34,932 nucleotides of DNA from Candidatus Krumholzibacteriota bacterium (GTDB lineage Bacteria; Krumholzibacteriota; Krumholzibacteriia; Krumholzibacteriales; Krumholzibacteriaceae), in the NCBI GenBank assembly GCA_030672805.1, contig DAOVFR010000001.1, forward strand, positions 1-34,932, in the 5' to 3' direction. How positions within the stretch are numbered: the stretch's first letter is position 1; every line of letters begins with the position of its first letter. Of the stretch, positions 3,843 through 25,794 are shown piece after piece. Under the pieces are notes generated by a model, which was not told where the DNA came from, did no database searches, and saw nothing but the letters and a program-made list of their open reading frames with translations. The translations under genes were made by a program, and so were the position numbers.

Positions 3843-5111
3843 ATGGCCGCCGGAGGTACGGTGAGAATCCTGTTCCTGATAAACAGCTACCACCCGAGAG
3901 TCGGAGGAGCGGAGCAGCTTGTCCGGTCGCTCTCACGAGAGCTGTGCTCATCCGGCCACCGCTGCATCATTGTTGCCAGGCTGTCCGGGGGCGCCCCGTT
4001 CGTCGAGCGCGGTGACGCCGGGACCGTGATCCGCATACCCGTGGCTGGCCCGAAGGTGTTCCGGTCGATGGTATTCAGGGCGCTGTCCTCCATGCTGCTC
4101 GTTATACTGAGAAAACGGTACGACTGCATTCACGCCCATTCGCTCGATGCACCCGCTGTCGTTGCAACCGCCCTCGGGGCCTTTCTCGGCAAGAAGGTCT
4201 ACGTCACGGTGCACAACACCGGAAAGGTCGCTGCCTGTCTCGAACGCTTCGGCGGCCGGCGTACCCTTGCACAAATCGTCAGCCGCTGCAGCGGCATGAT
4301 CTCCATCAACGACTACATCACCGGCGAGCTCGTCAAGGCGGGATGCCGGCGCGAGAAGATCGCGTTCATCCCGAACGGCGTCGATACTAAAATGTACGCC
4401 CCGCTGCCGGATGACCGGAGACGGCGCGGGCTGTTCAAGCTGGGATTCGTGAACCGGCTGATCTACGTTTTCGTCGGCAACTTCCACAGACAGAAGGGGC
4501 TGGACGTACTGCTCGAGGCGTGGGACCGCTTCCACCGGACCGTGGATGATTTCGATCCGATGCTTCTCCTGATCGGAGACGGGGCCTTGATGGGCTCGTG
4601 CCTGAAATTCGTCAAGGAAAGAGGTCTTGTTGACTCGGTGCGATTCCTCGGGCAACGTAACGACGTGTACCGCTACCTGCAGCTTTCGGATGTGTTTGTG
4701 CAGCCCTCCAGGTGGGAAGGATTGTCGATCGCACTCCTCGAAGCGATGGCGTGCGGAGTGGCCGTCATCGCGACCCCCGTAGGAGGAGCAAAGGCTGTCA
4801 TCAGGGCCGGGGTAAACGGACTGTTCACACGGATTGACGATTCGGAGGAGCTCGCGCGAATTATGAAATTACTCTTTGAAGATACCGCCGCAAGAAAGAG
4901 GCTCGGAACCGGCGCGAGAAGTACGGTAGTGGAGAGCTACTCGATCGCCGCGTGCGCCCGCCTGCACGTGCAACTGTTTTCCGGAGGTACGACCGTTCAT
5001 GGAACTGAAAGCCATAGCAAAGAAGCTGAAAGAAGCGATCCAGCCGCCGTCAAACGTGACGAACAGGCTGCAGGAGAAGAAGCTCGGGAACTATCTGGAA
5101 GGCTTCGATAA
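3843..5111 (+). CDS. Glycosyltransferase family 4 (GT-B fold)
   Basis: ORF with N-terminus RILFLINSYHPRVGGAEQ and the motif PSRWEGLSIALLEAMACGVAVIATPVGGAKAVIRAGVNGLF. An alternative GTG start at 3861 lies 4 nt after GGAGG. The low-complexity C-terminal tail overlaps the next gene. Confidence 0.85.
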   Translation: MAAGGTVRILFLINSYHPRVGGAEQLVRSLSRELCSSGHRCIIVARLSGGAPFVERGDAGTVIRIPVAGPKVFRSMVFRALSSMLLVILRKRYDCIHAHSLDAPAVVATALGAFLGKKVYVTVHNTGKVAACLERFGGRRTLAQIVSRCSGMISINDYITGELVKAGCRREKIAFIPNGVDTKMYAPLPDDRRRRGLFKLGFVNRLIYVFVGNFHRQKGLDVLLEAWDRFHRTVDDFDPMLLLIGDGALMGSCLKFVKERGLVDSVRFLGQRNDVYRYLQLSDVFVQPSRWEGLSIALLEAMACGVAVIATPVGGAKAVIRAGVNGLFTRIDDSEELARIMKLLFEDTAARKRLGTGARSTVVESYSIAACARLHVQLFSGGTTVHGTESHSKEAERSDPAAVKRDEQAAGEEARELSGRLR

Positions 5112-5685
5112 GGAAGCTGTCATCCTCGACCTCGGAGCCGGCCGGAAAAAAACGCGCCGGAACATCGTATCGATCGATCTCTACAGGGCCCCCGGCATCG
5201 ATATCATCGGAGATATCCAGCGGATCCCCCTTGCCTCGGATTCCATCGACGGGATCATCGCACGCGGGGTGCTGGAACACGTACCGGCCCCGGAAGCGGT
5301 TGTCGGAGAGATGTACCGGATCCTGAAACCGGGCGGACGTATCTACTCGTCGATACCGTTCATTCAGGGATATCACCCCAGTCCGGGTGATTACCGGCGG
5401 TACACGATCGACGGCATCGAGCTCCTCTTCTCTGATTTCAGGAAAATCGACTGCGGTATCACGAGAGGCAGCGCTTCTTCGTTCGTATGGATCTGCCGCG
5501 AATTTCTCTCGGAGGTCCTGTCGTTCAACAACGAAACGCTGTACAAGATCCTCAAGATCGCCCTGGGATGGCTGCTTCAGCCCATCAAGTATCTCGATCC
5601 CGTCACCGAACGGCACCGGAAAAGCCACATCGTGGCCTCCGGGTTTACCTTCCTCGGGGAGAAACCCCATACAAGATCCGCCTAG
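4999..5685 (+). CDS. Class I SAM-dependent methyltransferase (Methyltransf_11-like)
   Basis: Contains the SAM-binding motif I VILDLGAGRKK, then IIARGVLEHV and MYRILKPGGRIY, typical of this family. Confidence 0.8.
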   Translation: MELKAIAKKLKEAIQPPSNVTNRLQEKKLGNYLEGFDKEAVILDLGAGRKKTRRNIVSIDLYRAPGIDIIGDIQRIPLASDSIDGIIARGVLEHVPAPEAVVGEMYRILKPGGRIYSSIPFIQGYHPSPGDYRRYTIDGIELLFSDFRKIDCGITRGSASSFVWICREFLSEVLSFNNETLYKILKIALGWLLQPIKYLDPVTERHRKSHIVASGFTFLGEKPHTRSA

Positions 5686-8003
5686 AGTTTCGTCAGGATG
5701 AAGACCGTTGTCAGCGCGCTCGCGACTATGCCGAGCGAGGCCTGGAACATCTTGAGCCAGTTGCGGTCTTTACGTATCCTCTCGGGCACGATCACGGCAT
5801 CACCAAGCTCGAGCCTGTGCGAAAGAGCGTTACGCTTGATCACCCTTCCGTCCGCCTTGAGAACCCGGACCTCCCCCCTCGATGCCCTCATCGTGAAACC
5901 GCCCGCTCTCTCGATGTAGTACCTCGCCCGTTTCTCCCGCCTGAACTTGATCGTTCCCGATGACGCGACCGATCCGATTACATTTACCCCTGACGGGATC
6001 TTCGGAATAAATATCCGGTCACGGTCCTGGAGAAAGATATCCTCTTCGGGATCGCCCTTATCCACAATCCTCGGGAGATCGATAACAATCCTGTTCATCT
6101 TGACCGGATTGATATCGACCGCGGCCATCTCCCGCTGCAGCAACCCCGCCGAATCGATGTATGAGGGCTGCAGGGAAGCGATGATATCGCCCACGTGCCG
6201 CTGCCGGAGCTCATCGACGATCCCCTGCCGGGTGAAAACCGCACCTTCAGGGAATGCATCCACCGTGAATCCTCCGGCACGAATGATCAGGTTCCTGAGG
6301 GTCTCACGATCTCTGTCGAGAACGTATGTGCCGGGGAACTGAACTTCGCCCCCGATCATGACCTTCTCGTGGTCCTTTGACTTGGGAATCTCCCTGACGA
6401 ATATCGCGTCTCCCGCATCGAGCGGAATATCCTTTGGGCCGTAGGGACGTTCCAGAACCTCGAGTAGCGAAATCCCCTGCACCACCGATACCCTCGTACT
6501 GTCGGGGCTCAGCCTGGCGAGATCGGCATGCAGAAGATAGGCCTGCTTTTTCACCCCCCCCGCAAGGAAGATCAGATCGCCGATCGTCATGTTACCGGCG
6601 TACTCGTACCGTCCCGGGTCACGAACCTCGCCCGCGATATGCACGTTCTCGCGGTCCCGCATCCTGTCTGCATGAAAGATTCGGACCCGGTCCATCGGGC
6701 GCATCTCGATATCGCCGAACAGGGCGCCTTTTCTCTTTTGTCCACCATCGGCACGATGTGAAAGACCTAGAACAACCTCGAGATCCACGGAGAAGATCCT
6801 TATCGTCCTGTCGGGCATCGTCCGCGTAACAAGAGCCTTTTTCAGATACGAGAAGGGAAGCAGCATCCCCGGATCGATCAGGTCGGACACCTTCATGCCG
6901 TCTACATACTCGTACGTGCCGGGGTATTTCACCTCGCCATCGACGTAAACGACCCGCTCGGTAAGATCGTGAACGGTCTTGACCAGTATGACATCGCCGT
7001 CTCTCAGCTTGATGTTGCTCTCGTCACCTTCGTCGATGTCGGAGATATCGAGATTGACGAGAACGCGTCTCTCGTTGTCCTCGAACCGGCGGACGTCGAT
7101 ATTCCCGAGAAACGCGGAAGATCGCACTCCTCCAGCGATCCTTATCACGTCGAGCAGCCGCTCGCCTCCGAGGATCTCGTATACAGCGGGCCGCCGCACC
7201 TCGCCGCTGACCGTGACCAGTGGATTCACCACCGGCACGAATATGACATCGTTCGACTCCAGTTTCACATCCTCGCTCACACCCTCGACGAGGAGACGGT
7301 AAAGATCGACTTCCTTGACGATCCGGTTATTGCGAATGAGCCGTATCGAGCGGAGCGTGCCGCGCTCGTTGGGGCCGCCGGCGAGATACAACGTGTTGAA
7401 CAGGGTATAAAGCGAACTCGTCGTATAGGCGCCGGGCCGCTTCACCTCGCCGCTGACAAAAACGGTGATCGATCTGATCTTACCCAGGATCATGTTCATC
7501 TTGAAGGTGGAGTAGATCGTTTTCAGGAGATCCTCGATCCGTTTCTCCGCTGCTTCGAGCGTCATTCCCCACAACACAAGCTCGCCAGCCCTGGGAATGA
7601 ACACCTTCCCCTCCCTGTCAATAACTAGCTCGTGGCTGAGATCGGCTCCCCCCCACAAATTTATAACGATGTGATCCCCGGGCCCGAGAACGTAATCGGA
7701 CGGCACCGGTATCTCGGTCGACGAGATGAACTCATCCGGGGGGTGAGTGAACATGTCGAGTCCGAACCGCCGGCTCTCCACCGGCTCTCCGCCGGTTTTT
7801 TCCCTGGCGGGAGGGACCCGGGGGACGCTTCGCTCGAAGATATATACCGAATCCTGTTCCTCCGCCTTGCCGCCGGCCTTCTCCCGTGTTTCAAGGTACC
7901 GGTCGAGCGCCTCCCGCTGTTCGGCCGTCTGGGCGGCCGGGCCGCCAATCGGTGCAAGGAGCGCCGCACATAAGATAATTACAACGCAAGCGATCCTGGA
8001 CAT
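5682..8003 (-). CDS. Polysaccharide export protein, Wza/KpsD-like, with multiple SLBB repeats
   Basis: Signal peptide MSRIACVVIILCAALLAPIGGPAAQ and the Poly_export motif DYVLGPGDHIVINLWG. Six repeats of the G-E-V-x-x-P-G-x-Y type are present (VSGEVKRPGAY, VSGEVRRPAVY, VDGEVKYPGTY, IAGEVRDPGRY, IGGEVQFPGTY, VIGSVASSGTI). There is a C-terminal hydrophobic helix, and the RBS GAAGGGG precedes the ATG. Confidence 0.85.
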   Translation of the reverse strand: MSRIACVVIILCAALLAPIGGPAAQTAEQREALDRYLETREKAGGKAEEQDSVYIFERSVPRVPPAREKTGGEPVESRRFGLDMFTHPPDEFISSTEIPVPSDYVLGPGDHIVINLWGGADLSHELVIDREGKVFIPRAGELVLWGMTLEAAEKRIEDLLKTIYSTFKMNMILGKIRSITVFVSGEVKRPGAYTTSSLYTLFNTLYLAGGPNERGTLRSIRLIRNNRIVKEVDLYRLLVEGVSEDVKLESNDVIFVPVVNPLVTVSGEVRRPAVYEILGGERLLDVIRIAGGVRSSAFLGNIDVRRFEDNERRVLVNLDISDIDEGDESNIKLRDGDVILVKTVHDLTERVVYVDGEVKYPGTYEYVDGMKVSDLIDPGMLLPFSYLKKALVTRTMPDRTIRIFSVDLEVVLGLSHRADGGQKRKGALFGDIEMRPMDRVRIFHADRMRDRENVHIAGEVRDPGRYEYAGNMTIGDLIFLAGGVKKQAYLLHADLARLSPDSTRVSVVQGISLLEVLERPYGPKDIPLDAGDAIFVREIPKSKDHEKVMIGGEVQFPGTYVLDRDRETLRNLIIRAGGFTVDAFPEGAVFTRQGIVDELRQRHVGDIIASLQPSYIDSAGLLQREMAAVDINPVKMNRIVIDLPRIVDKGDPEEDIFLQDRDRIFIPKIPSGVNVIGSVASSGTIKFRREKRARYYIERAGGFTMRASRGEVRVLKADGRVIKRNALSHRLELGDAVIVPERIRKDRNWLKMFQASLGIVASALTTVFILTKL

Positions 8004-8339
8004 CAGTTACCCCTTCATTTCGTACTCATCAACACTCCGATATTCAGACTCAACATTACAAGTTCCGTTCCATACATCGAAGCGCCGGGCATCCACCGGC
8101 AATGCCGTAACGTTCACTCTATCAAGAGAATATGCGCTCCATGAAAGCACCTGTTCGCGCCTGGCGAACGTGGACCGGCCTCGACGTGCACCTTTTTTCC
8201 CGCGAACCCTGCAATCATTTCCTCTTTCAAACCGGGATTAAAGTCTCACCCGGATCGACCGATATCTCATAGAGAGTACACGCACTTGCATATGAATGCG
8301 TGCAGATGATCCTCGGGACACACAACACGGACTGGAACG

Positions 8340-8861
8340 ATGGAAACAATTATTTACGGAGCCGGACTTCTCGGCAGGACGGCCAAGGAGTTACTCGACG
8401 GCCAGGCTTCTATCGAGATCATCGGATTCATCGATGACGACCCCTGGAAGGAAGGGACAAAGGTCTGCGGTCTGAGCGTGATCGGAAGGGGACGCGAACT
8501 TCCGACGTTCCTTCGCTTCGGCGTGGAGGCGATCCTGGTCGCCATCTCGGACGGCGAAACGAGACTCTGGCTATCGAAGCTTGCGGGGCAAATCGGCTAC
8601 CGGCAGATCAGTGCGATATCGAAAACAGCACACGTATCACCGGACGCCATCATAAGCGATGGATGCATCCTTTCCGACCGGGTGCGTGTCGAGGAAGGGG
8701 CTGTGATCGGTGACAGCTGCTTCCTCGGAGCCGGCTGCACCGTCGAACGCTCGGCGAGGGTACCGGACGGCAGCAACGTCGCGGGCGGCACGACGGTCAA
8801 TGCGGAAAGCGTCCCGGAAACGATGGCAAGGGAGTTCATGTCTCGATCAGAAACGGAGTGA
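8340..8861 (+). CDS. Sugar N-acetyltransferase, NeuD/PglD-like (short left-handed beta-helix)
   Basis: The N-terminal Rossmann-like segment IIYGAGLLGRTAKELL..IIGFIDDD is followed by hexapeptide-like repeats (ISDGCILSDRVRVEEGAVIGDSCFLGAGCTVE). At 173 aa it is shorter than typical family members. Its stop overlaps the next start in an ATGA arrangement. Confidence 0.6.
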   Translation: METIIYGAGLLGRTAKELLDGQASIEIIGFIDDDPWKEGTKVCGLSVIGRGRELPTFLRFGVEAILVAISDGETRLWLSKLAGQIGYRQISAISKTAHVSPDAIISDGCILSDRVRVEEGAVIGDSCFLGAGCTVERSARVPDGSNVAGGTTVNAESVPETMAREFMSRSETE

Positions 8862-10084
8862 ACATGACGACGACCGAAATCAGTACAGGTACGAAAACCC
8901 GGACGCCCGCCGTTCTCGGCGGAAACCCCGCATTCGAGAAAACAGTGTCGATCATCAGGCCCAATCTCCCTCCCTGGAGCAGCGTGTCGAAGCGCCTCGA
9001 GGACATCTATTCATCGAGGATGATCACAAACCACAAGACGGTAGAGGAACTCGAGACGAAGATGGCCCGTTTCGTTGGCTCCCGTCACGTCGTTGCGCTT
9101 TCTTCCTGCTCGTCCGGCCTGATCCTCACATTGAAGGCGCTCGGGATCACCGGCGAGGTCATCGTCCCGAGTTTCACATTCTCCGCCACGGGGCATGCGA
9201 TCTACTGGGCCGGCGCACGACCGGTCTTCGCGGACTGCAGCGAACGTGACTGGAACATTTCGATCGAATCGATCAGGAAGGCCGTCTCGAAAGATACGGA
9301 AGCGATCCTCGCCGTCCATATCTTCGGAAATCCGGCCCCGGTTCATGCCCTCGAGGAGATAGCCGAACAGCTCGGGATCCCGCTGATCTTCGACGCGGCC
9401 CACGCGTTCGGCGCAAGCGTCGGCAACCGTCGGATCGGCGGGTTCGGAACAGCCGAGATCTTCAGCCTGAGCCCGACCAAGCTCCTCACCGGCGGCGAGG
9501 GCGGACTTCTCGTAACGGACAGCGACGAGCTCGCCGCGAAGGTCAGGATGCTCCGCAATTACGGCGATCCCGGCACCTATGACTGTTTCGCGCCGGGTCT
9601 GAACGCGAGGATGGCGGAGTTCAACGCAGCCCTGGTACTCGAGGGACTTCCCCTCGTCGACCCCGAGATCACGAGCCGGCAGAACCTTGCCGGGATCTAC
9701 TACGGGGAGCTTTCCAGGCTGCCCGGGATCCGGTTCCAGGAGATTTCCGACGGCAGCCAGCATACGTACAAGGATTTCACGATCGTCGTCGACGAGAACG
9801 GGTTCGGCATTGACAGGGACGCGCTCCACAGGTGCCTGCTTGCCGAGAATATCCAGACGAAGAAGTATTTCTACCCCCCACTCCACATGCAGAGCGCCTA
9901 CATGAACCTGCCGCACCGGTCCGTCGACCTCACAGTCACGGAATGGCTCACCCACAACGTACTTACACTTCCCCTCTACTCGGCGCTGGGAAAGAAAGGG
10001 GTGGCCGGGATCGCCTCGGCGATCGCCTCTATCCATGCACATACACGGGAAATCGGGCTCACCCGGCGGCAGCTACAGGGTTAA
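8858..10084 (+). CDS. DegT/DnrJ/EryC1/StrS-family PLP-dependent sugar aminotransferase
   Basis: Family-typical motifs are present: GNPAFEK near the N-terminus, VIVPSFTFSATGHAIYWAG, DAAHAFGA, and the PLP-lysine context FSLSPTKLLTGGEGGLLVT. The start is translationally coupled to the upstream acetyltransferase. Confidence 0.9.
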   Translation: MNMTTTEISTGTKTRTPAVLGGNPAFEKTVSIIRPNLPPWSSVSKRLEDIYSSRMITNHKTVEELETKMARFVGSRHVVALSSCSSGLILTLKALGITGEVIVPSFTFSATGHAIYWAGARPVFADCSERDWNISIESIRKAVSKDTEAILAVHIFGNPAPVHALEEIAEQLGIPLIFDAAHAFGASVGNRRIGGFGTAEIFSLSPTKLLTGGEGGLLVTDSDELAAKVRMLRNYGDPGTYDCFAPGLNARMAEFNAALVLEGLPLVDPEITSRQNLAGIYYGELSRLPGIRFQEISDGSQHTYKDFTIVVDENGFGIDRDALHRCLLAENIQTKKYFYPPLHMQSAYMNLPHRSVDLTVTEWLTHNVLTLPLYSALGKKGVAGIASAIASIHAHTREIGLTRRQLQG

Positions 10085-10094
10085 AGGAGCAGAA

Positions 10095-11213
10095 ATGGCG
10101 AATATAGAGAATAGGAAGGTGTGGATACCTGAAGAACTCGAACCCCGCGGGGTCACGTACGACATGCTCCACGGAGCGGGCAGGATCTCGAAACAGAAGA
10201 TCCTGATCCTCGGCGGAGGAGGGTATCTCGGCTGCATCCTTGCACGTCTGCTGGTGGAGGACAATTACGATGTGACCGTTCTTGACCGGTTTTTCTACGA
10301 ACCGCAATCACTCCAGCGGATGCGAGGCCTGAACAATATCACAATTCATTGCGGTGACATCCGGGACCGGGAGCTGCTCGAGCACGTCATGGAGGGAAAG
10401 GACGCCGTCGTCAACCTGGCCGCGATCGTCGGCGATGAGGCCTGCCGTATCAATCCCGGGGCAACCGTGGACATCAACGTGAGAACCATCCGGCTGATTG
10501 CACGGTTCGCCAGGCAGGCCGGTGTCCGGAGGATCCTGCACACATCCACATGCAGCACGTACGGTAAGAACTGCGGCGGGCTTCTAAACGAGAACATTAA
10601 GCTCGAACCGCTCTCGCTCTACGCGGAGAGCAAAGTAGAGAGCGAGAGGGTCCTGATGGAGGAAACGGATAATGGCACGGCGCCGGCCTGTTGTATTCTC
10701 AGGTTGTCGACGCTCTTCGGATATTCCCACAGACCGCGCTTCGACCTCGTCGTCAACACTTTCACCGGGCATGCATGGAAGCATGGCAAGATCACGATCT
10801 TCGGTGGAAACCAGTGGAGACCCTTCCTCCACGTTGGCGACGCGGCAAGGGCGCTGAAAACGGCGATCGAGGCGCCCGCCGACCGTGTCGCAGGTATGAT
10901 CTACAACACCGGCGGGGAGGATCTGAACCTGACAATCATGCAGGTAGGACGGATGATCAGGGAAGTTCTGCCCCGTATCGAGCTAAATGTGAAGGCGGGA
11001 TCGGTCGATGAACGTGATTACCGTGTCGATTTCTCGCTGATCCGGGAGAACCTCGGTTTCGATCCGGCGTACAGTATCTCGAACGGCGTACTCGAGCTCG
11101 TACACGCACTCGACACGGGCGAGATGATCGACCCTGAACACCCGGTCTATTCCAACTGCAAGTGGCTGACCGACAACCCTGAACTGCTCGAGGAGCCCGC
11201 GGTCCTCGTCTGA
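10095..11213 (+). CDS. NAD-dependent sugar epimerase/dehydratase (extended SDR)
   Basis: The preferred start is the ATG at 10095, 5 nt after AAAGGAG; the track ORF begins at 10035. The Rossmann motif is ILILGGGGYLGCILARLL and the catalytic YxxxK is YAESK. Confidence 0.85.
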   Translation: MANIENRKVWIPEELEPRGVTYDMLHGAGRISKQKILILGGGGYLGCILARLLVEDNYDVTVLDRFFYEPQSLQRMRGLNNITIHCGDIRDRELLEHVMEGKDAVVNLAAIVGDEACRINPGATVDINVRTIRLIARFARQAGVRRILHTSTCSTYGKNCGGLLNENIKLEPLSLYAESKVESERVLMEETDNGTAPACCILRLSTLFGYSHRPRFDLVVNTFTGHAWKHGKITIFGGNQWRPFLHVGDAARALKTAIEAPADRVAGMIYNTGGEDLNLTIMQVGRMIREVLPRIELNVKAGSVDERDYRVDFSLIRENLGFDPAYSISNGVLELVHALDTGEMIDPEHPVYSNCKWLTDNPELLEEPAVLV

Positions 11214-14060: not shown

Positions 14061-15899
14061 TTAATTCCTTTTTATGTGATCGAAATCAAAGATGTAAGGC
14101 ACATTGAACATGATCTTGGCGACATTTGCCTCGTCAACGGACACGTGTCTAACTTTCGGGCGGGTCAACCCGAGCATTATGTGGCCGTTGTCGTAACTGT
14201 GCCCCATCCCGAGAATATGACCGAATTCATGTGCGTAGATCATGTCGGCGTATCTGAAAACCCACACTCCGGAGTACTTGGTGTAGATTCTTATTTCCTT
14301 TCTCCCGGGAGTCCCGTCTGGATTGACTTCAGTAACTTTAACGTAATGAGGATGGTTAACCAATATCGTATCGTAGACAACCCTCACATCCGCTTCTGAT
14401 TCATCCTGTGTCTCTATGAAGAGATGATCCTTGCCGGTTTTAATCTCCCAGTCCTCCATGGCGCCCCGGCAGAACTCACCGAGGTCAAGGGTCATCGTGT
14501 CATGCCTGACGACGAATTCGGGGTTGTATACGGTTATCGGGAGATGATTCCAGTTCCTCTTGATCGTGGGTTCCGTCGGTCTTCCCGTCGTCAGCGAGAG
14601 TTGCCTGAAAAAGTCGAGGAAATCGGAATAATATTCTTCCGGGTTCACCGCGCTGACGAATTCGATGACCGGCATGATATACAGGTCGAGAGAGAAATGC
14701 CAGTTCAGATCTCCCAGTGGACACACCATATCATGATAGTCACCGATAAAGCCCCCACCGTAGAGCTCGTCCCGTGCGGCTATCTGGCTCGTGTACAGGG
14801 GAAGGTTATCGATCTGGTACCTCCCCGACGCATCCGTCGTGTCCATCTTGCCGTCCGCCGATACGAAGATACCCTCGACCCCATGCCCCGTTTGCAGGTC
14901 GATCACGTACCCCTCGGCGTCGATTCCCCTGATGAGAAGATGAACGTTGTTACCGATCGGCGACAGGTTGAAAAAGTCATCGATCGCCCTGATCGTCACG
15001 AACGTATACGTGCCGGGATTGAGTCCGGAGACGATCATCGATTCTCTCGTGCCCGCTTCGGACGGCAACGGTTCCCCGTTCTTGTCTGAGGCATCGCGCC
15101 AGTCGCATTCCGACAGAACAGGCGTCGTCGAGGTCCTCACGATATACGCGGCCGTCTTGCCTGAGGTGGTGTCGTCACCCGGCGCCGTCCACTCGAGCCG
15201 GATGGTGCCCGGGCTGTCCCCGGTCCAGCCCTCGAGATCGATGATCGAGGAAGGATGTATCGTATCGGGAAATCCCGTTACGTTCACGTCCCAGTTTACC
15301 GTGTCGCCGTACTCGCCGTCCCATACGATGCCCCTGAGATTGAAGACGCCAAGCTCCATGAAACGGTGTTCGAAATCAGGCGTGTCCGTATAAAAGTTCA
15401 CGCCGACCAGCTTGAACAGGTAGATGTTAAGATCCGGGTAATCCGGATCGACACTGAAGTGAAAATCGAGCGTATCCCCCACGACGACCGAGACGTCGTT
15501 CTGGTCCGGATTGCGCCATACGATCACGGGAGGCTCGATCTGCTTCTCGTAAACGGTTATATGCCAGTCATGGAAGGTGAACACACTGCCATCGTATGCC
15601 CGTCCCTCTATGCGGTATTTACCGGCACTTACCGCGTTGAAGACGGCCCGGTTCTCCGTGCTCAGTATGGAATCCCCAAGGAGAAACCGGTACTCGAGCT
15701 GGTCGTTATCGGGATCGATCGCATTCAACACCAGCGTGATCGATTCCAGAACCTCAAGCGTAATGTATGTTTCGACAGGCTGATATGACTTGATAATCGG
15801 GGGTGTGTTCGGAACAAGCGGATCATTCTGGAATAAACAGGACCCAACACCCAACATCAGAACGAGAACGGTTGCAAGCTCGATCCTCTTCCACATCAT
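14061..15899 (-). CDS. Surface lipoprotein with a C-terminal metzincin-type zinc metalloprotease domain and N-terminal Ig/cadherin-like, FN3-like and CarboxypepD_reg-like segments
   Basis: The preferred start is the ATGATG at 15894-15899 after GAGAGGGGAA, giving MMWKRIELATVLVLMLGVGSC, which has a lipobox. The zinc motif HEFGHILGMGH (HExxHxxGxxH) is encoded at 14199-14231. Upstream segments resemble cadherin/PKD-like repeats (NAIDPDNDQLEY), FN3 (GTIRLEWTAPGDD) and a carboxypeptidase-regulatory fold (GIFVSADGKMDTTDASGRYQIDNLP). Confidence 0.75.
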   Translation of the reverse strand: MMWKRIELATVLVLMLGVGSCLFQNDPLVPNTPPIIKSYQPVETYITLEVLESITLVLNAIDPDNDQLEYRFLLGDSILSTENRAVFNAVSAGKYRIEGRAYDGSVFTFHDWHITVYEKQIEPPVIVWRNPDQNDVSVVVGDTLDFHFSVDPDYPDLNIYLFKLVGVNFYTDTPDFEHRFMELGVFNLRGIVWDGEYGDTVNWDVNVTGFPDTIHPSSIIDLEGWTGDSPGTIRLEWTAPGDDTTSGKTAAYIVRTSTTPVLSECDWRDASDKNGEPLPSEAGTRESMIVSGLNPGTYTFVTIRAIDDFFNLSPIGNNVHLLIRGIDAEGYVIDLQTGHGVEGIFVSADGKMDTTDASGRYQIDNLPLYTSQIAARDELYGGGFIGDYHDMVCPLGDLNWHFSLDLYIMPVIEFVSAVNPEEYYSDFLDFFRQLSLTTGRPTEPTIKRNWNHLPITVYNPEFVVRHDTMTLDLGEFCRGAMEDWEIKTGKDHLFIETQDESEADVRVVYDTILVNHPHYVKVTEVNPDGTPGRKEIRIYTKYSGVWVFRYADMIYAHEFGHILGMGHSYDNGHIMLGLTRPKVRHVSVDEANVAKIMFNVPYIFDFDHIKRN

Positions 15900-15931
15900 T
15901 TCCCCTCTCAGGGGATGGGGTCTCTTCAAGT

Positions 15932-15960
15932 AAAATATAACATTGATCATGTTGAGTCAA
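15932..15960 (-). promoter_or_regulatory. Candidate sigma70-type promoter of the metzincin lipoprotein gene, with an inverted repeat in the spacer
   Basis: In minus sense the site reads TTGACT (15955-15960), a 17-nt spacer, then TATTTT (15932-15937), about 30 nt upstream of the start codon. The spacer contains the inverted repeat AACAT-N5-ATGTT (15939-15953). Confidence 0.4.
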
Positions 15961-16014: not shown

Positions 16015-16353
16015 CTACCCGGAGGAGGCATACCGCCTGCACGTAACAGCCAGGTAGGATTTCAGGGAATGATCGAGGGCCCAGAAATATTCATCGGCGC
16101 CGGAAACACGGATGCTCACCCTGCCTGTCGTTCCGACCGTGACCCGGAACAGCTCCGTGTAGGGAGAAACTGCGACCAGAAAACCGGATGGGGAACGGAA
16201 ACGGATCTCGAATGGAGCAACCTCTGTCACGATATCCCCGCCCAAACCCGCTACCTCGGTGCAGAGCCTGACAAACAGGAACCTGGTTGCATCCGCATCG
16301 ATGCGCGCTGACAGCTTTTCGATACCCGCCGCCGCGTTATCCAGCCGCTTCAT
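16015..16353 (-). CDS. Hypothetical small protein, third gene of the ParA-CBM48 module
   Basis: ORF 16015..16374. The start at MKRLDNAAAG (16353) would overlap the upstream gene's end by 17 nt. I recognise no motif, and it is the same-strand distal gene of a coupled operon. Confidence 0.45.
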   Translation of the reverse strand: MKRLDNAAAGIEKLSARIDADATRFLFVRLCTEVAGLGGDIVTEVAPFEIRFRSPSGFLVAVSPYTELFRVTVGTTGRVSIRVSGADEYFWALDHSLKSYLAVTCRRYASSG

Positions 16354-17137
16354 TCTCCTTGCTCCTCCTGGCACTGCTCAGAACCTGTAAGAGCGTCTGG
16401 GCCAGGTCCGTGAAAAACGGGTCCGATGGAGGCCTCCGCTGGCCGAGGCCCCGCAGGATACTGGCCGGCGCCGGCATGATCCCGCAGGCCGTATCGCCGG
16501 GCGGGCAGGCGGGCGCCGAGGCGGCAAGGTAGATGAACACATCGGGGTAACGATCCCTGATCCGCATCATCTTCCGTTGTAACGATCCCCTGCCGCTTCC
16601 CGGCTCCATGATGACGATCACGTCGGGTGATGGAGATCGACCGCCGCCGTTGACGCGGTAATGCACCGAGCACTCCTCGATCATACGGAACGGCTTGCTG
16701 TCCGGAACCGGGTCATCATATATGAATGCCGAGATAATGATATGCGGAAACCCGGGACACGGAGATCCCGGGTCATGATTCGCGAGGGAGTGCGGCGATG
16801 GGGAAAAACAGTACCGGAGCAAGGGCCCGGCCTGTCCCTCAACCACTGCCCCATCATCGAGGGTCACCGAAAGGTAGCGGGAAGGGTCGAGACCGTAATA
16901 GTAACCGATGTTCGGCAGGGAACGGCACACATCGAGAAGTGTGACCCCCATCCCCTGGCCGGCAAACCCTCCCGCGACACCCGCTGCAAGGAACGCACGT
17001 GCCGGATGGCGGCCGGAAACGGCCAGCCAGACACCAGCTTCCGTTTTGTTTTGCGGATACCCATTCGTATGTTCTCGTTCCGACAGAAAGAGGTGGGAAA
17101 CGTCAGCAAGCCGCTTTGGTGCTTTCCGTGAAGGCAT
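16337..17137 (-). CDS. ParA/MinD-like paralogue with degenerate nucleotide-binding motifs (putative pseudo-ATPase or adaptor)
   Basis: The start ATG (complement of 17135-17137) lies 2 nt after the upstream TAA. Segment order mirrors ParA: VWLAVSGRHPARAFLAAGVAGGFAGQGMGVTLLDV sits where Walker A and A' would be, but the KGG and GKT residues are lost. PHIIISAFIYDD sits at the Walker B position. DVIVIMEPGSGRGSLQRKMMRIRDRY parallels DVLIPFDPSYFSLQGLGKLRETL of the upstream ParA. The N-terminus MPSRKAPKRL is basic. Confidence 0.55.
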   Translation of the reverse strand: MPSRKAPKRLADVSHLFLSEREHTNGYPQNKTEAGVWLAVSGRHPARAFLAAGVAGGFAGQGMGVTLLDVCRSLPNIGYYYGLDPSRYLSVTLDDGAVVEGQAGPLLRYCFSPSPHSLANHDPGSPCPGFPHIIISAFIYDDPVPDSKPFRMIEECSVHYRVNGGGRSPSPDVIVIMEPGSGRGSLQRKMMRIRDRYPDVFIYLAASAPACPPGDTACGIMPAPASILRGLGQRRPPSDPFFTDLAQTLLQVLSSARRSKENEAAG

Positions 17138-17139
17138 GG

Positions 17140-18213
17140 TTAGACGATCAACAACGAGTTTTCCTGGCCGAACTCGTTCAGCACGGAGTCGGTATTGGCG
17201 GGATCCTTGATCCATACCCCGTCAACGATGAACCGGTACTCGTACTCTCCGGGTTCGAGATGAAGAACGGCCTTCCATAATCCGTCCTTGCCGTCCCGGC
17301 TCATCCTGATACCGTCGCGGGACCAGTTCGTGAATTCACCGGTTATGTACACGCTGTTTGAGTTCGGAGCATCCAGCATGAATAACATGCCCTCCTCCAC
17401 TTTCCTCGGTCCGTGAAGCCTGATCATCCAATCCTCGATATCGACTGTATCCAATACTGACACCCTTTCTTCGATCTCGCCCGCCAGCGAGAGGAATTCC
17501 CGCTTCAGCCTGCCGGTGTCCCGCATCTGGAAGATCGAAACACCCCTCAAGGCCGCTTCCTTGTACCTGACTGAATGGCTGATCGTGCTTTCCATCACGA
17601 CCGAACCGTGTTTCCTGTCGATCTCCGCCACGATGTCACGGGAGAAATTCGTTCTCTTCTCCAGGTTGTTGATCAACACGTGAACCGCCACCCTGTGCCT
17701 GGTTTCGCTCTCGAGGAGATCCAGCGTTTCCCTCAGTTTCCCAAGCCCCTGCAGCGAGAAGTAACTAGGGTCGAAAGGTATAAGAACGTCACTCGCCGCG
17801 ATAAGTGCATTGAATGTCAACAGACCAACGTTCGGTGGCGAATCGATGATGATATAATCGTACAGATCCGCGATCCTGGCTGTTTTCGATACCAGCTTTC
17901 CCTCCCGGGCCGGTTTTCCCGAAAGTTCCTGTTCGACCGCGCTGAGGATCGGCGAGGCCGCGATGATATCGAAATCCCCATCGATGTTCAATGCCGCTTC
18001 CGGTATCCTGAGACGGGGATTCATCAACAGGTCATACGACGTATGCTCGACATCGTCCAGAAACACGTTCAACCCTATCGAGGCATGAGATTGGGGATCG
18101 AGATCGATCAGAAGCACCCGCCTGCCCATCTCCTTGAAAGCAGCGGCAAGGTTGATCGAAACGGTCGTCTTGCCGCAACCTCCTTTCTGGTTTATCACCG
18201 AGACGGTTCGCAT
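17140..18213 (-). CDS. ParA/MinD-family P-loop ATPase fused to a C-terminal CBM48/AMPK-beta-type glycogen-binding (E-set) domain
   Basis: The preferred start is the ATG at 18211-18213 after AAGGGAGAG, giving MRTVSVINQKGGCGKTT with the deviant Walker A signature lysine. LLIDLDPQ is the A' motif and YIIIDSPP is Walker B. The C-terminal ~85 aa (17143-17391) read MLFMLDAPNSNSVYITGEFTNWSRDGIRMSRDGKDGLWKAVLHLEPGEYEYRFIVDGVWIKDPAN, the classic CBM48/AMPK1_CBM pattern. Confidence 0.85.
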   Translation of the reverse strand: MRTVSVINQKGGCGKTTVSINLAAAFKEMGRRVLLIDLDPQSHASIGLNVFLDDVEHTSYDLLMNPRLRIPEAALNIDGDFDIIAASPILSAVEQELSGKPAREGKLVSKTARIADLYDYIIIDSPPNVGLLTFNALIAASDVLIPFDPSYFSLQGLGKLRETLDLLESETRHRVAVHVLINNLEKRTNFSRDIVAEIDRKHGSVVMESTISHSVRYKEAALRGVSIFQMRDTGRLKREFLSLAGEIEERVSVLDTVDIEDWMIRLHGPRKVEEGMLFMLDAPNSNSVYITGEFTNWSRDGIRMSRDGKDGLWKAVLHLEPGEYEYRFIVDGVWIKDPANTDSVLNEFGQENSLLIV

Positions 18214-18267
18214 GATCTCTCCCTTCTGCCTGCCGCCGGGCGGCTTCACCGCAACGCTACCTAATGG

Positions 18268-18299
18268 AAAAAGGCCAAATCATCCTTGATGATCCGGCC
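18268..18299 (-). terminator. Rho-independent terminator in minus sense
   Basis: The minus-sense RNA is GGCCGGAUCAUC-AAG-GAUGAUUUGGCC followed by UUUUU. The stem is 12 bp including two G-U pairs. On the plus sense those pairs would be A-C mismatches, so the hairpin is strand-specific. It lies about 55 nt upstream of the ParA-CBM48 start and 240 nt downstream of the DUF212 stop. Confidence 0.6.
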
Positions 18300-18465
18300 C
18301 GATCAAAATCTATCGCTAATTCCAAGCATACCCATGAGGAACAGGGACTCCCGCCATAGATTCACCCTGTCCTTCGCACCTTTCTACATCCCGTGTATTT
18401 CCCTGTCGGCTATACTCCTTTGGACTTGAACAAACGCTGCCCTGTATGGTGAAAACATTGAATCC
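18268..18465 (-). ncRNA. Candidate ~200-nt sRNA or cis-regulatory leader (GGA-rich), bounded by a promoter-like site and an intrinsic terminator
   Basis: The unit runs from the predicted promoter at 18472-18522 to the terminator at 18268-18299. It contains no convincing ORF. It has nine GGA trinucleotides on the minus sense against three on the plus sense, and an internal hairpin AAGGACAGGG..CCCUGUUCCU. I recognise no Rfam family by eye. Confidence 0.3.
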
Positions 18466-18471
18466 ACAGTC

Positions 18472-18522
18472 ATTCTGGGTCGTATCCTGTATGAGTGTCA
18501 AGGCTTTTTTTAGGCTTTTTTT
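18472..18522 (-). promoter_or_regulatory. Candidate promoter with phased A-tracts (UP-element-like)
   Basis: In minus sense the site reads AAAAAAAGCCT-AAAAAAAGCCT, a perfect 11-nt tandem at 18501-18522, running directly into the -35 TTGACA (18496-18501). An 18-nt spacer precedes the weak -10 CAGAAT (18472-18477). Confidence 0.35.
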
Positions 18523-18538
18523 CCGGTTTCCTCCAACG

Positions 18539-18961
18539 TCAGTAAACGAGCAGCGCCACAAGCAGACCGAGGGCGAAACCTCCCAACACTTCCGCCCATG
18601 TATGGCCGATGAGTTCGCGTAGTTCGTCGGCGTTGAAATGGTGTGTTTCCTTGACTGTTTCGATGATCTCGTTCAGGACCTTCGCCTGGTTGCCGACCTC
18701 CTGCCTGAGCCCGGTCGCCTCGAAGATGAAGTAGAGACTCATGATCAGCGATATACCGAACAACGGCGACGAGACTCCCTGGTAAACCGCCACACCGACG
18801 GTAAGCGCGGTGACAACCGCGGTATGGGAACTGGGCATCCCTCCTGTGTCCATGAATCGTATCAGCTTGAATCCACGTCTCTGTACGAGGTCCACGAATG
18901 GTTTCAACGCCTGCGCCGAGATTCCGCTGATGAGCGCCGCAATGCCGATCTTGTGAATCAT
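18539..18961 (-). CDS. Divergent PAP2-family membrane protein (DUF212, acid phosphatase/vanadium haloperoxidase-related)
   Basis: 140 aa and multi-pass hydrophobic, with the hallmark GGMPSSHTAVVTAL and N-terminal AQALKPFVDL typical of DUF212. Confidence 0.8.
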   Translation of the reverse strand: MIHKIGIAALISGISAQALKPFVDLVQRRGFKLIRFMDTGGMPSSHTAVVTALTVGVAVYQGVSSPLFGISLIMSLYFIFEATGLRQEVGNQAKVLNEIIETVKETHHFNADELRELIGHTWAEVLGGFALGLLVALLVY

Positions 18962-22536: not shown

Positions 22537-23700
22537 TTGGTAGAGACGGGAATCGATATACTGTTGCGGGAGGCCCGGACACGCCTGCAGGGCAGGCGTA
22601 TCGGGCTTCTTGCCAATCCGGCGTCAGTGACGGCCGACCTTCGTCACGCGGCGGAAGCACTCGTCTCGAACGGTGTGCGTCTCTCCTGCCTGTTCGGTCC
22701 CCAGCACGGTTATCGCGGTGACACCCAGGCGAACATGGTCGAATGGAAGGGCTTCAGGCACGAAACGCTCGGGATACCGGTACACTCGCTCTACGGGAAG
22801 AGCCGCGAACCGGATGCGTCGGTGCTCCGGGAGCTGGACACAATCATCATCGACCTGCCCGACGCCGGGGCCCGGCCGTACACATATATCTGGACCGCCG
22901 TCCTGATGATGCGCGCGTGTGCCGGGACGGGTACGGAGGTTATCGTCTGTGACCGGCCGAACCCGATCGGGGGCGAACTGGTCGAGGGGCCGCTGCTCGA
23001 ACCGGGCCTCTTCTCCTTTGTCGGGCTTTTCCCGCTCGTGATGAGACACGGGATGACGCCGGGCGAGATACTCACGATGATCGACACGGCCGGGGAACCG
23101 GCCTGCCGTCTCGAGGTTGTGCGGATGGCCGGATGGAAACGCTCGATGTACTTCGAGGAAACCGGCCTGCCGTGGGTGCTCCCTTCGCCGAACATCCCGA
23201 CCGCCGACACTGCCGCAGTCTACCCGGGAACGGTGATGCTCGAGGGAACGAACATCTCCGAGGGACGGGGCACGACACGGCCCTTCGAGATCATCGGCGC
23301 CCCATGGATAGAACCCGGTCCCTTCGCAGACGCGCTGCGCGGGTTCCCCATCGAGGGAGCGGCACTCCGGCCATGCCGTTTTACGCCGACGTGGGATAAA
23401 TACCATGGCGAGGTATGCGGAGGCGTCCAGGTCCACGTACTCGACCGGGAACGTTTCCGGCCGGTGCGGTTCGGGGCCGAAGTCATCGGAGCCGCCGCCG
23501 CTCTGTATCCGGATCGGTTCGCCTGGAGCGAACCTCCGTACGAATACGATTTCGAGCATCCCCCTATCGACATCCTTTCGGGAAGCGAGAAATTGAGGAA
23601 ATCGGCCGGGAAGAAGACGGGGCTGGCGGAACTGTTCCGGTCGTGGGATAGGGACGAGGCGGAGTTTTCACGCCGGAGAGAACCTTTCCTGCTTTACTAA
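22537..23700 (+). CDS. DUF1343 family protein (NamZ-like exo-beta-N-acetylmuramidase)
   Basis: TTG start with no in-frame ATG nearby. Hallmark DUF1343 motifs are present: RIGLLANPASV, LFGPQHGYRGD, IIDLPDAGARPYTYIWT and VCDRPNPIGG. Confidence 0.85.
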   Translation: MVETGIDILLREARTRLQGRRIGLLANPASVTADLRHAAEALVSNGVRLSCLFGPQHGYRGDTQANMVEWKGFRHETLGIPVHSLYGKSREPDASVLRELDTIIIDLPDAGARPYTYIWTAVLMMRACAGTGTEVIVCDRPNPIGGELVEGPLLEPGLFSFVGLFPLVMRHGMTPGEILTMIDTAGEPACRLEVVRMAGWKRSMYFEETGLPWVLPSPNIPTADTAAVYPGTVMLEGTNISEGRGTTRPFEIIGAPWIEPGPFADALRGFPIEGAALRPCRFTPTWDKYHGEVCGGVQVHVLDRERFRPVRFGAEVIGAAAALYPDRFAWSEPPYEYDFEHPPIDILSGSEKLRKSAGKKTGLAELFRSWDRDEAEFSRRREPFLLY

Positions 23701-23783
23701 TCGGCCCGCTTTATCAATAATCGCCCCCAGCAAGTCCACTGACCTATCTCGAAGCTGCGCCCTACGGTAACCGGGTCTGTCAT

Positions 23784-24767
23784 ATGGATCGTTCATCCAA
23801 TCGTGAATCGGTCGCAGGAGTGATCCTCACCGCCGGGCTCGGAAGGCGGATGAGGCCTATCACGGAGACCGTTCCGAAACCGCTTCTTCCCGTCCTTGGA
23901 ATTCCCCTCTTCGAGGTCATCGCAGAGAAGCTCCTGCGGAGCGGGGCCGCCCGTATCCACTGCAACCTCTTTCACCTCGGCGAGAGAATCGAGGCGTTCG
24001 CCTCATCGATGGACCGGCCGCTCACCTTCCATCACGAGGAACGCCTCCTCGGAATCGGAGGCGGAATCGGACATATGGCCCAACACCTGGAGCGGTACGG
24101 AGTTATCATGATCCATAACGGGGACATAGTCTCGAACATCGATTTCGCACCGGTTCTCCGGTACCACGCGGAACGGGGGCAGCTCGTTACCCTTGTTCTC
24201 TCCCCGGAGGGACCGGTACGGAACGTCTGGTGTACCGGTACGGGAGAGGTGCGGCGCTTCGGCACGTTCGATTCGCCGGATGAACCGGACGTCAAGGCAC
24301 TCGGGTACACGGGACTCTCTGTCATATCGGCTGGAGCCCTCTCCTTCTTCCCGCGCGGCGTGCCGGGAGGTCTCGCCCCGATCCTCCATGCGATGATCGA
24401 GGAGCATCCCGGCTCCGTGCATGGACTGGATATTTCCACGATCGACCCCCGGTACCTGTGGAACGAGATCGGATCTCCACGGTCGTACCTCGACGTGCAC
24501 AGAACAATACTGGTCGAGAAGACCGTCTACGACCGTCTTCTCCCGCCCCCTCCCCTTCCGCTTCACGTGGGTGAAGGGGCTTTCGTGGCGCCGGATGCAG
24601 TCTGGCGGGGCTTTCTCGAGGTCGGTCCGGGAGCCCGTGTCGGACGAAACACGGTTCTCGAAAACTGCGTCATCCTCGAAGGGACGGCCGTACCCGGGGA
24701 CACCTCGTACCGCAACGCGATCATCTATCCCGGAGGAAGTCTCGAAACGGAGCGGAGCAATGAATAA
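23784..24767 (+). CDS. Sugar-1-phosphate nucleotidyltransferase (MurU-like) with a C-terminal hexapeptide-repeat extension
   Basis: The NTP_transferase N-terminus is GVILTAGLGRRMRPITETVPKPLLPV. The C-terminal ~70 aa carry left-handed beta-helix-like repeats (VGPGARVGRNTVLENCVILEGTAVPGDTSYRNAIIYPGG). Its end overlaps the downstream kinase start by 8 nt. Confidence 0.8.
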   Translation: MDRSSNRESVAGVILTAGLGRRMRPITETVPKPLLPVLGIPLFEVIAEKLLRSGAARIHCNLFHLGERIEAFASSMDRPLTFHHEERLLGIGGGIGHMAQHLERYGVIMIHNGDIVSNIDFAPVLRYHAERGQLVTLVLSPEGPVRNVWCTGTGEVRRFGTFDSPDEPDVKALGYTGLSVISAGALSFFPRGVPGGLAPILHAMIEEHPGSVHGLDISTIDPRYLWNEIGSPRSYLDVHRTILVEKTVYDRLLPPPPLPLHVGEGAFVAPDAVWRGFLEVGPGARVGRNTVLENCVILEGTAVPGDTSYRNAIIYPGGSLETERSNE

Positions 24768-25794
24768 CGATCCCGCATTCCTGAAAGACCTGGCCGAAAC
24801 CGCCGTCCGCCTCGCCGTACAGTCGGACCGGGGCCCGTTCGACGGTCCGGCGGAATTGACCCCGCTCGCGCACGGCGGGTCGCACAGGGGTTTCTACCGT
24901 ATATCGGACGGAATACGGTCGGCCGTCGTTCTCTCCCAGCCCGGCGCCGGCGAGTTCGAACGGTACGTCGAGATTGGCGCTTTCTTGCGCAAGAACGGCG
25001 TCGGCGTACCTGAATTCTACAACGTGGACCGGCAGCGCGGCGTGCTCCTGATGGAAGACCTCGGCGGGCTCCACCTCGAGGACTGGCTCGAGGAAGCGGA
25101 TCCCGGGAGTGAACTCGCACTGTACAGGATGTGTATCGAGATGCTGGTACTTCTCGAGACGGCGGTCACGGCAGCGATGAAGCGGGAAGGTTTCCTCGAG
25201 GAAACCGTGTTCGACGAAAAAACACTTCTCGGCGAGACGGAATACTTTGCGAGGGAGTTCATCGACGGGTACTGCCCCGTTAGATACGCCGGCGGGTGGG
25301 AAAGCGAGAGGACGCTCCTCGCCGGGACGCTCGCCGGACGTCCCCGACTGTTCATGCACCGCGATTTCCAGTGCAGGAACATCATCGTCAAGGACGGCAA
25401 GCCGAGATTGATCGATTTCCAGGCGGCCCACCGGGGACCCGGCCTCTACGACGCCGCGTCGCTGCTCAAGGACCCCTATCACCCGCTCGACCGGGAAGCG
25501 AGAATCGGACTTCTCGCCTTCTTTCATGACAGGTTGAAGGAAGCCGGGGCGCCCGTACCGCCCGGTTTCGGGGAATACGCCGGGCTCTTCGTCCTTGCGG
25601 GAATCCAGCGGAACCTGCAGGCGCTCGCCGCCTTTGCACGACTGGGCCTGAGAGAGGGAAAACGGCATTTCCTCCGTTACATCCCCGCCGGCGTGCGGCT
25701 TCTCGAAGAGGGTATCGAGGAGGCGGGATGCCTGCCCGCCCTGAAACAGATGGTCACCGAGATCGGAGAGAAAATATCGAAAGGAATTGAGTAG
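24760..25794 (+). CDS. Aminoglycoside-phosphotransferase-fold sugar kinase (AmgK-like anomeric MurNAc/GlcNAc kinase)
   Basis: The start is the ATG at 24760 (MNNDPAFL); the track ORF 24421.. begins inside the upstream gene. APH-fold catalytic motifs are LFMHRDFQCRNIIV and RLIDFQAAHRGPGLYDAASLLKDPY. It is coupled to a nucleotidyltransferase, as in known amgK-murU pairs. Confidence 0.75.
   Translation: MNNDPAFLKDLAETAVRLAVQSDRGPFDGPAELTPLAHGGSHRGFYRISDGIRSAVVLSQPGAGEFERYVEIGAFLRKNGVGVPEFYNVDRQRGVLLMEDLGGLHLEDWLEEADPGSELALYRMCIEMLVLLETAVTAAMKREGFLEETVFDEKTLLGETEYFAREFIDGYCPVRYAGGWESERTLLAGTLAGRPRLFMHRDFQCRNIIVKDGKPRLIDFQAAHRGPGLYDAASLLKDPYHPLDREARIGLLAFFHDRLKEAGAPVPPGFGEYAGLFVLAGIQRNLQALAAFARLGLREGKRHFLRYIPAGVRLLEEGIEEAGCLPALKQMVTEIGEKISKGIE

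Follow-up and report, generated by a model that had tools for sequence, protein, structure and literature searches.

What does the degenerate, ParA-like protein encoded directly behind a ParA-CBM48 ATPase do? The question is raised by a gene for 266 amino acids (aa) in the first 34,932 nucleotides (nt) of contig DAOVFR010000001.1 from a Candidatus Krumholzibacteriota bacterium (assembly GCA_030672805.1); this whole stretch is referred to below as the window. A preliminary description, made from the sequence alone, had taken this gene, here called the partner gene, for a translationally coupled ParA-like paralogue of its neighbour, with all nucleotide-binding motifs degenerated and a basic N-terminal peptide. 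The reading preferred here, to which a probability of roughly 0.6 is given, is that the partner is a pseudo-ATPase dedicated to ParA-CBM48, and that its N-terminal tag activates that ATPase. Coordinates of the features are collected in Table 1.

The partner family

Searches of Pfam and NCBIfam at E values up to 1 gave no match to the partner, and a sequence-profile search of the PDB with the partner family returned a chance match only (E 0.14). The initial homologue search found three relatives. A profile search of 90% clusters gave 48 homologues, almost all of them 262–267 aa long, the few named ones being Candidatus Krumholzibacteria, and 111 matches came from a profile search run exhaustively against 1.8 billion representatives. 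Family A is represented by an alignment of 42 sequences (A2), while alignment A3 spans subtypes A, B and C. Subtypes B and C, found by the exhaustive search, are very divergent and match only the first ~90 residues of the partner; their sequence patterns are RHIRDIAHLYIS...FPGFHAANLAAAL in subtype B and RRLRDISHLYLS...CANLAVQFARLGRRTLVLDLDPxLPNVGF in subtype C.

Between close relatives, the ratio of nonsynonymous to synonymous substitution rates (dN/dS) of the partner gene is 0.2–0.5, and the median values are 0.13 for ParA, 0.39 for the partner and 0.33 for the 112 aa gene that follows it. The partner gene is therefore coding and constrained, confirming that the frame described earlier is a real gene under purifying selection. 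Its rate of evolution is about three times that of the neighbouring ParA gene. One homologue (P0004, 296 aa, locus L001, 8001–8891) diverges after about residue 200, and the rest of the protein is found in another frame (open reading frame (ORF) 8392–8796); this is probably a frameshift in that assembly.

Two other identities for the partner were considered and rejected. The RRSSRSL...FLS segment resembles the S/T-RRxFLK signature of a twin-arginine translocation (Tat) signal peptide, but no hydrophobic h-region follows it (ESRPVRDE...). A role in defence was likewise discarded, as PADLOC gave no match for the partner and matched ParA only weakly, as a P-loop protein; the 112 aa protein had no PADLOC match either.

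Fold and nucleotide site

An AlphaFold2 (AF2) model of the partner, built from A2, has a predicted local distance difference test score (pLDDT) of 82 and a predicted template modelling score (pTM) of 0.82, with a core of alternating strands and helices; residues 1–28 have a pLDDT below 50. The best 16 Foldseek matches to this model in the PDB were MinD, FlhG, FleN, BcsQ, NifH and BchL, and the top 50 were almost all SIMIBI-class P-loop proteins (best probability ~1.0, template modelling (TM) scores 0.44–0.57). The matches include MinD (4V03, 1HYQ), FleN (8P53, 5J1J), FlhG (4RZ2), BcsQ (6YAY) and Soj (2BEJ). According to the model, the fold of the partner is of the MinD/ParA type (SIMIBI alpha/beta), so that the structure check proposed in the preliminary description came out in its favour.

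The segment order also parallels that of ParA, each of the quoted strings being present and lying in the model where it had been claimed. AVSGRHPARAF (residues 39–49) falls at the P-loop position, modelled as a strand (33–41), a short loop and a helix (46–60); TLLDVCRS (66–73) overlaps strand 64–70 at the A′ position; HIIISAFIYD (132–141) corresponds to the Walker B strand (132–140); and the later block, DVIVIMEPGSG... from residue 172, forms strand 173–177 plus helix 183–196.

None of the family members (0/223) has a Walker A motif (GxxxxGK[ST]), and none has a GK[ST] at the P-loop position; KGGxGK[ST] is intact in 61/62 of the neighbouring ParAs. The loop SGRHPARAF (family consensus ADASLNRAH) falls 2–3 residues short of the length of a P-loop. 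Its R47 and A48 are invariant, and R47 is aligned by hhalign with the Walker A lysine of a less degenerate relative from Zixibacteria. The first acidic residue of A′ is retained, as D69 in the window and as E in at least 90% of relatives, and the second (A′/switch I) is replaced by Cys or Gly. In the switch I signature that follows strand 2, P75, G78 and Y80 do not vary, and conservation is at least 90% for L74 and Y79 in A2 and for N76 in a further alignment, A4. The Walker B position has the consensus AIVxAFPYP, in which AF-P is not accompanied by an Asp; this Asp and the second switch I Asp are absent in subtypes A, B and C. The earlier statement that all motifs are degenerate thus applies to Walker A, the second A′ acid and the Walker B Asp, and has to be corrected for D69, which is kept. 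Judged by these residues, the partner, a ParA/MinD superfamily protein of the MinD/FlhG branch, is catalytically dead.

Probable descent from the FlhG/MinD branch

A genome scan located partner relatives of 303–317 aa in Zixibacteria and Omnitrophota (loci L035–L038), which score slightly below the Pfam thresholds for ParA and CbiA. The Zixibacteria partner matches FleN (E 7e-21) and FlhG (5e-15) over its full length, compared with a BLASTP E value of 0.033 against its own neighbouring ParA. It carries GDHRSLEKS where the FleN/FlhG type has GGKGGVGKT, and a Walker B sequence is still present (LVDTPA, in LMLVDTPA). When the window family was compared with this protein by hhalign, the probability was 90% (E 1.6e-6) over 86 columns, which run from the tag through strand 1, loop, helix 1 and strand 2 to switch I. 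The window protein itself is connected to FlhG/FleN only at the level of fold and through this 86-column link.

Since the Zixibacteria partner matches FleN at 7e-21 and its own ParA at 0.033, the partner lineage appears by sequence to be a progressively degraded offshoot of the FlhG/FleN/MinD branch, not a duplicate of a Soj-type ParA. A recent origin by duplication of the adjacent ParA was rejected: the hhalign match between the partner family and ParA covers 27 columns (E 0.086), beside the poor score of the Zixibacteria pair. The designation as a ParA-like paralogue was therefore right as regards the fold, but the partner is not a paralogue of the ParA next to it.

The N-terminal tag and the ParA pocket

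Nowhere is the partner more conserved than in its N-terminal 19 residues. Residues 4–19 are at least 90% conserved in A2, and just three columns are invariant across subtypes A, B and C, L16 and S19 among them; the linker after the tag is variable. Four of the first nine residues are Lys or Arg. The likeness of this basic peptide to those of ParB-type partners, proposed in the preliminary description, gains support from the relatives. Those from Zixibacteria start MKKDKRLGKGLEDISHLFLS and the one from Omnitrophota MTTARKLGKGLGDISHLFLS, to be compared with MAKNKVLGRGLADIFPE at the N-terminus of Helicobacter pylori ParB (PDB 4UMK; MAKNKVLGRGLADIF was used in the tag comparison). LGKGL[EG]DI in the Zixibacteria/Omnitrophota tags corresponds to LGRGLADI in H. 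pylori ParB, giving the common string LG[RK]GLxDI. The window tag, A6-P7-K8-R9-L10-A11-D12-V13 (APKRLADV), is a derived form of this LG[RK]GL-type motif. A PDB short-peptide search with the Zixibacteria tag gave no match.

The tag follows the pattern [L/S/A]-x-[K/R]-x-[L/I]-x-D-[I/V], with the spacing of L11, R13, L15 and L18 in Myxococcus xanthus ParB, and nearly every locus has K or R at the central basic position. In M. xanthus ParB, residues L11, R13, L15, L18 and I19 bind ParA, and R13, which is a Lys in half of all ParBs, is required for ATPase stimulation (PMC12462528). Partners of ParA/MinD (A/D) ATPases work via a charged, disordered N-terminus (PMC10241942, PMC11407121).

The ParB-binding pocket of M. 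xanthus was mapped onto the ParA-CBM48 family (58 sequences) through alignment to 8RAY. Y81 corresponds to Y in 57/58, E117 to E in 56/58, G151 to G in 58/58 and L152 to L in 56/58, while L155 is replaced by F (58/58) and V116 by Q (57/58). The entropy of these columns is 0 to 0.22 bits, compared with a mean of 1.34 bits for the ParA domain, and most of the mapped residues exceed the average conservation of the domain. In the tag as in the pocket, variation tracks clades and is inseparable from phylogeny.

Linkage to ParA-CBM48 across phyla

The gene neighbourhood was compared in 37 loci from species-representative genomes (Krumholzibacteriota, Latescibacterota, Zixibacteria, Omnitrophota and one labelled Patescibacteria), and in 42 loci from a metagenome scan for subtypes B and C. 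A ParA with a CBM48 lies immediately upstream of the partner in 36/36 of the genome loci that hold upstream DNA, and directly upstream in every such metagenome locus. In all, ParA-CBM48 precedes the partner in each of about 75 loci where this could be checked, so that the co-conservation looked for was found throughout; no locus with a partner and no ParA-CBM48 was seen among the genome and metagenome loci.

The wider synteny of subtypes A and B comprises SBP_bac_5, DUF212, ParA, the partner, the small gene, an M10-like protein and ClpB, with DUF212 syntenic in subtype C too. The flanks differ in Zixibacteria and Omnitrophota (DUF3467 upstream, a GH57 branching enzyme and DUF4912 downstream), where the pair is still together.

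Some of these neighbours may be described further. The DUF212 (divergent PAP2) membrane protein (18539–18961, minus strand, in the window) immediately precedes ParA-CBM48 in 44 loci, subtype C among them, and may be functionally linked to the module. Downstream of the module, at 14061–15950 (minus strand), is a 629 aa predicted lipoprotein with an LGVGSC lipobox, Ig-like repeats and a C-terminal metzincin motif (HEFGHILGMGH); it is syntenic in 34 loci, subtype B included. ClpB is split in loci L001, L009 and L017.

The ParA-CBM48 protein and a possible link to glycogen

The ParA-CBM48 protein matches the Pfam families AAA_31 (1e-44), AMPK1_CBM (2e-13; 50.5 bits, cut-off 26.8) and CBM_48 (8e-7). 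Its nearest PDB entries are the ParA 8RAY (4e-39) and Soj 1WCV (1e-32), and the motifs KGGCGKT, DLDPQ and IIIDSPP are all intact. After alignment to 1Z0N/4YEF, the CBM48 positions W298, W335 and N353 are found in 58/58 family members and R328 in 56/58; these four correspond to the sugar-binding positions of AMPK carbohydrate-binding modules. The DNA-binding arginine of Soj is retained as R217 (SVR217YKEA, equivalent to M. xanthus R238), and is R or K in 56/58. With these residues, ParA-CBM48 could bridge the nucleoid and an alpha-glucan in one protein.

A GH57 glycogen branching enzyme (Glyco_hydro_57 plus BE_C) follows the module in Zixibacteria and Omnitrophota, and is the only direct genomic link of the module to glycogen metabolism. 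Locus L038 also has a DUF4912/glucodextranase-B protein. These genes lie at 7641–9398 in L037 and at 8473–9651 and 9781–11421 in L038. Subtype B loci have an extra, stand-alone CBM48 ORF of 108–139 aa about 1 kb downstream (L044, 5396–5722; L048, 6505–6924), which is also present in L043, L046, L049 and L051.

The third gene

In subtypes A, B and C, the partner is directly followed by homologues of the 112 aa protein, with 64 ORF hits by phmmer and hmmsearch (alignment A6). They share the motifs FExRF, SPYRELFxVxVG, xRV and ALD. The gene is translationally coupled, and its protein probably belongs to the module as a third integral component. It has no match in Pfam, NCBIfam or the PDB, a word-index homologue search returned only the protein itself, and a single-sequence AF2 model was uninformative (pLDDT 37). 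In Zixibacteria and Omnitrophota, a different third gene of 193–229 aa with a weak NucS_C-like match takes its place (L037, 6939–7520; L038, 6907–7572; L036, 4866–5555). The genes of L037 and L038 are homologues of one another (E 2e-9), and no relation to the 112 aa family was detected when the two were compared with it by hhalign.

Locus layout and gene starts

The three-gene module is compact (about 2.2 kb). As described previously, the partner gene starts 2 nt after the ParA-CBM48 stop codon, and no Shine-Dalgarno sequence is visible before its ATG, both of which fit translational coupling to ParA-CBM48. In most related loci the gap is 2–5 nt, or the genes overlap by 4 nt. A longer partner ORF, from an ATG at 17215, was ruled out: all 42 aligned homologues in A2 start at the position of 17137 (M-P/S-x-R-R), which is therefore the start codon. 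The ParA start is most likely the ATG at 18213 rather than the GTG at 18249; this ATG is preceded by a Shine-Dalgarno sequence (AAGGGAGAG), and the 357 aa product has the length of its relatives.

Table 1. Positions of the module genes and of features within and near them in the window
Feature	Position	Strand	Remarks
Pseudo-ATPase partner gene (putative), 266 aa	16337..17137	-	Predicted MinD/ParA fold; conserved partner of ParA-CBM48
ParA-CBM48 ATPase, 357 aa	17140..18213	-	Soj-type ParA domain with C-terminal AMPK-beta-type CBM48
CBM48/AMPK-beta-like module in ParA protein	17143..17439	-	Matches AMPK beta-1 carbohydrate-binding module 1Z0N/4YEF, 3e-9
CC spacer, 2 nt	17138..17139	-	Between ParA stop TAA (17142-17140) and partner ATG (17137)
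N-terminal tag MPSRKAPKRLADVSHLFLS	17081..17137	-	ParB-like motif, putative ATPase binding; central basic K8, then L10, D12, V13
Degenerate, shortened P-loop AVSGRHPARAF	16991..17023	-	Residues 39-49; invariant R47 at Walker A lysine position
LPNIGYY, family signature after strand 2	16898..16918	-	Switch I position
HIIISAFIYD, strand at Walker B position	16715..16744	-	Residues 132-141; Walker B aspartate gone
Third module gene, 112 aa	16015..16353	-	ATG overlaps final 17 nt of partner gene; preceded by AAGGAG Shine-Dalgarno
Promoter-like site TTGACA, 18 nt, CAGAAT	18472..18501	-	Upstream of ParA; consensus scan only

The 325 nt leader before ParA (18214–18538, minus strand) contains a 13 bp hairpin followed by a T-run (18300–18272), about 60 nt before the ATG, which could be the terminator of the upstream gene or an attenuator. 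An Rfam scan of the window, this leader included, gave no match. Two further clusters lie in the window. At 22537–25794 (plus strand), genes for a NamZ exo-muramidase, an NTP-transferase and an APH-family kinase stand in a row, and look like an N-acetylmuramic acid (MurNAc) recycling cluster of the AmgK/MurU type. A polysaccharide export/biosynthesis cluster occupies 2590–11213, with two GT4 glycosyltransferases, a Wza-like Poly_export/SLBB protein, a DegT aminotransferase and a NAD-dependent epimerase.

Proposed function and alternatives

In the proposed mechanism, the tag would dock in the dimer-interface pocket of ATP-bound ParA-CBM48 and trigger ATP hydrolysis, in the manner of the N-terminal peptides of ParB, McdB, MinE and PomX. 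The dead MinD-like body and the third small protein would provide oligomerisation and/or attachment to the positioned cargo, while ParA-CBM48 would grip the cargo via its CBM48 and the nucleoid via its Soj-type DNA-binding surface. The module as a whole would then distribute or anchor alpha-glucan granules relative to the nucleoid. As the DNA-binding arginine and the CBM48 tryptophans are both kept, distribution or anchoring of glycogen granules on the nucleoid would be its likely job. That the three genes are a positioning system for alpha-glucan (glycogen) granules, in which the pseudo-ATPase replaces ParB as the timer of ATP hydrolysis, is put forward tentatively, at somewhat worse than even odds.

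Several observations weigh against these proposals. The window tag (APKRLADVSHLF) lacks the LGxGL glycines, and its likeness to ParB is partly carried by the relatives. The pocket residues adjoin Walker B, and their conservation may have other causes. Part of the co-occurrence of the partner with ParA-CBM48 is inherited gene order, as subtypes A, B and C share the wider synteny. No glycogen genes were found nearby in the Krumholzibacteria loci. Finally, the most conserved residues of the body (R47-A48-H49, LPNxGYY and AF-P) lie on the former nucleotide/dimer face, which suggests that this face is functional too, not the tag alone, and fits a face-to-face complex equally well.

Such a complex, in which the dead body pairs with a ParA-CBM48 monomer via the former ATP-sandwich face, would cap, inhibit or bias the ATP cycle, leaving the tag for another contact, for example with the third protein; it is compatible with activation by the tag. 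The invariant or near-invariant core (R47, A48 and H49; L74, P75, N76, G78, Y79 and Y80; A137, F138 and P141) falls in the P-loop remnant, switch I and the Walker B/switch II strand, which form the dimer interface in real MinD and ParA proteins, and includes the arginine aligned with the Walker A lysine. We nevertheless consider a pseudo-dimer unlikely as the explanation, because the partner and the Soj-type ParA come from different branches, the ParB-peptide likeness of the tag would be left unexplained, and work on A/D ATPases emphasises homodimer specificity (PMC10241942).

R47, H49 and D/E69 could also be read as part of an unconventional loop that binds a nucleotide or other phosphorylated ligand, making the partner a sensor or enzyme with only a regulatory link to ParA. 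An invariant Arg at the Walker lysine position, the retained first A′ acidic residue, and the Lys-Ser and Walker B Asp of the Zixibacteria relative would agree with this, but compared with a P-loop the loop is short by 2–3 residues and glycine-free, and all three subtypes have lost the Walker B Asp and second switch I Asp. Ligand binding is considered quite improbable. A conserved operon neighbour of unrelated function, adjacent through inherited gene order only, would account for the wider syntenic block of subtypes A and B, but hardly for a pair kept in Zixibacteria and Omnitrophota amid entirely different flanks, for spacers of 2–5 nt or overlaps, for a ParB-like tag or for the lack of any partner-only locus among those checked, and is the least probable explanation.

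Comparison with known systems

The structures organised by ParA/MinD ATPases include chromosomes, plasmids, carboxysomes, flagella, chemotaxis arrays and the divisome. The partners vary to such an extent that many of the ATPases remain called orphans (PMC10241942). A 2024 review of A/D ATPase cargos mentions no carbohydrate cargo or glycogen, a 2023 survey of multiple A/D ATPases in one bacterium no glycogen, and a full-text literature search returned nothing on ParA-CBM48 fusions, pseudo-ATPases of the ParA family or the positioning of glycogen by ParA/MinD proteins. The CBM48 fusion points to storage polysaccharide as the cargo class; if this is true, carbohydrate would be a new kind of cargo for ParA/MinD systems. 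The module is found in several uncultured phyla (Krumholzibacteriota, Latescibacterota, Zixibacteria and Omnitrophota), and would give a new pair of 'luggage tag' and ATPase for synthetic positioning systems.

Like ParB (Spo0J) of the ParABS systems for chromosome and plasmid partition, the partner is encoded directly after a Soj-type ParA, and has a probably flexible N-terminus with a central Lys/Arg between aliphatic residues (LGKGL in the Zixibacteria and Omnitrophota relatives). Unlike ParB, it has a MinD-like body, with neither a ParB/Srx CTPase domain nor a helix-turn-helix (HTH) domain detected (Pfam and NCBIfam at E up to 1; predicted fold), and is not accompanied by evidence of parS; its motif also runs on into an invariant SHLFLS, which is absent from ParB.

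FlhG/FleN, MinD-like ATPases by which flagellar number is controlled, are nearest to the partner by sequence (through the Zixibacteria member) and by fold. FlhG offers a parallel for the proposed mechanism, as its N-terminal peptide stimulates another SIMIBI nucleoside triphosphatase, FlhF; the FlhG tag is a DQAxxLR helix, to which the tag of the partner is unrelated in sequence. The partner differs in that its Walker A is destroyed and, judging from gene linkage, in having ParA-CBM48 as client instead of FlhF. No flagellar genes were present among the scanned ORFs of the window or in the related loci inspected.

The module also resembles McdA-McdB, PomZ-PomXY and MinD-MinE, in which a positioning ATPase works with a fast-evolving partner that has a charged, disordered N-terminus (PMC10241942, PMC11407121), and the dN/dS of the partner, three times that of its ATPase, is in line with this. 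In contrast to McdB, PomXY and MinE, the partner itself comes from the ATPase superfamily, in degenerate form, and in contrast to the McdA, PomZ and MinD systems, the ATPase has its own cargo-type module (CBM48) and a third conserved small protein is present.

TadZ/CpaE and BcsQ, which serve mostly as scaffolds, provide a precedent for reuse of the MinD fold in protein-protein organisation instead of a normal ATPase cycle, and BcsQ is among the top fold matches. ATP binding is preserved in these proteins, with a Walker A that can still be recognised, whereas the partner family has none. Compared with the ParA/MinD ATPases in general, the partner shares fold and descent, but fails on the Walker A that defines them. 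It would represent a burnt-out member of the superfamily: a positioning ATPase recycled into a regulator while gaining a ParB-type tag.

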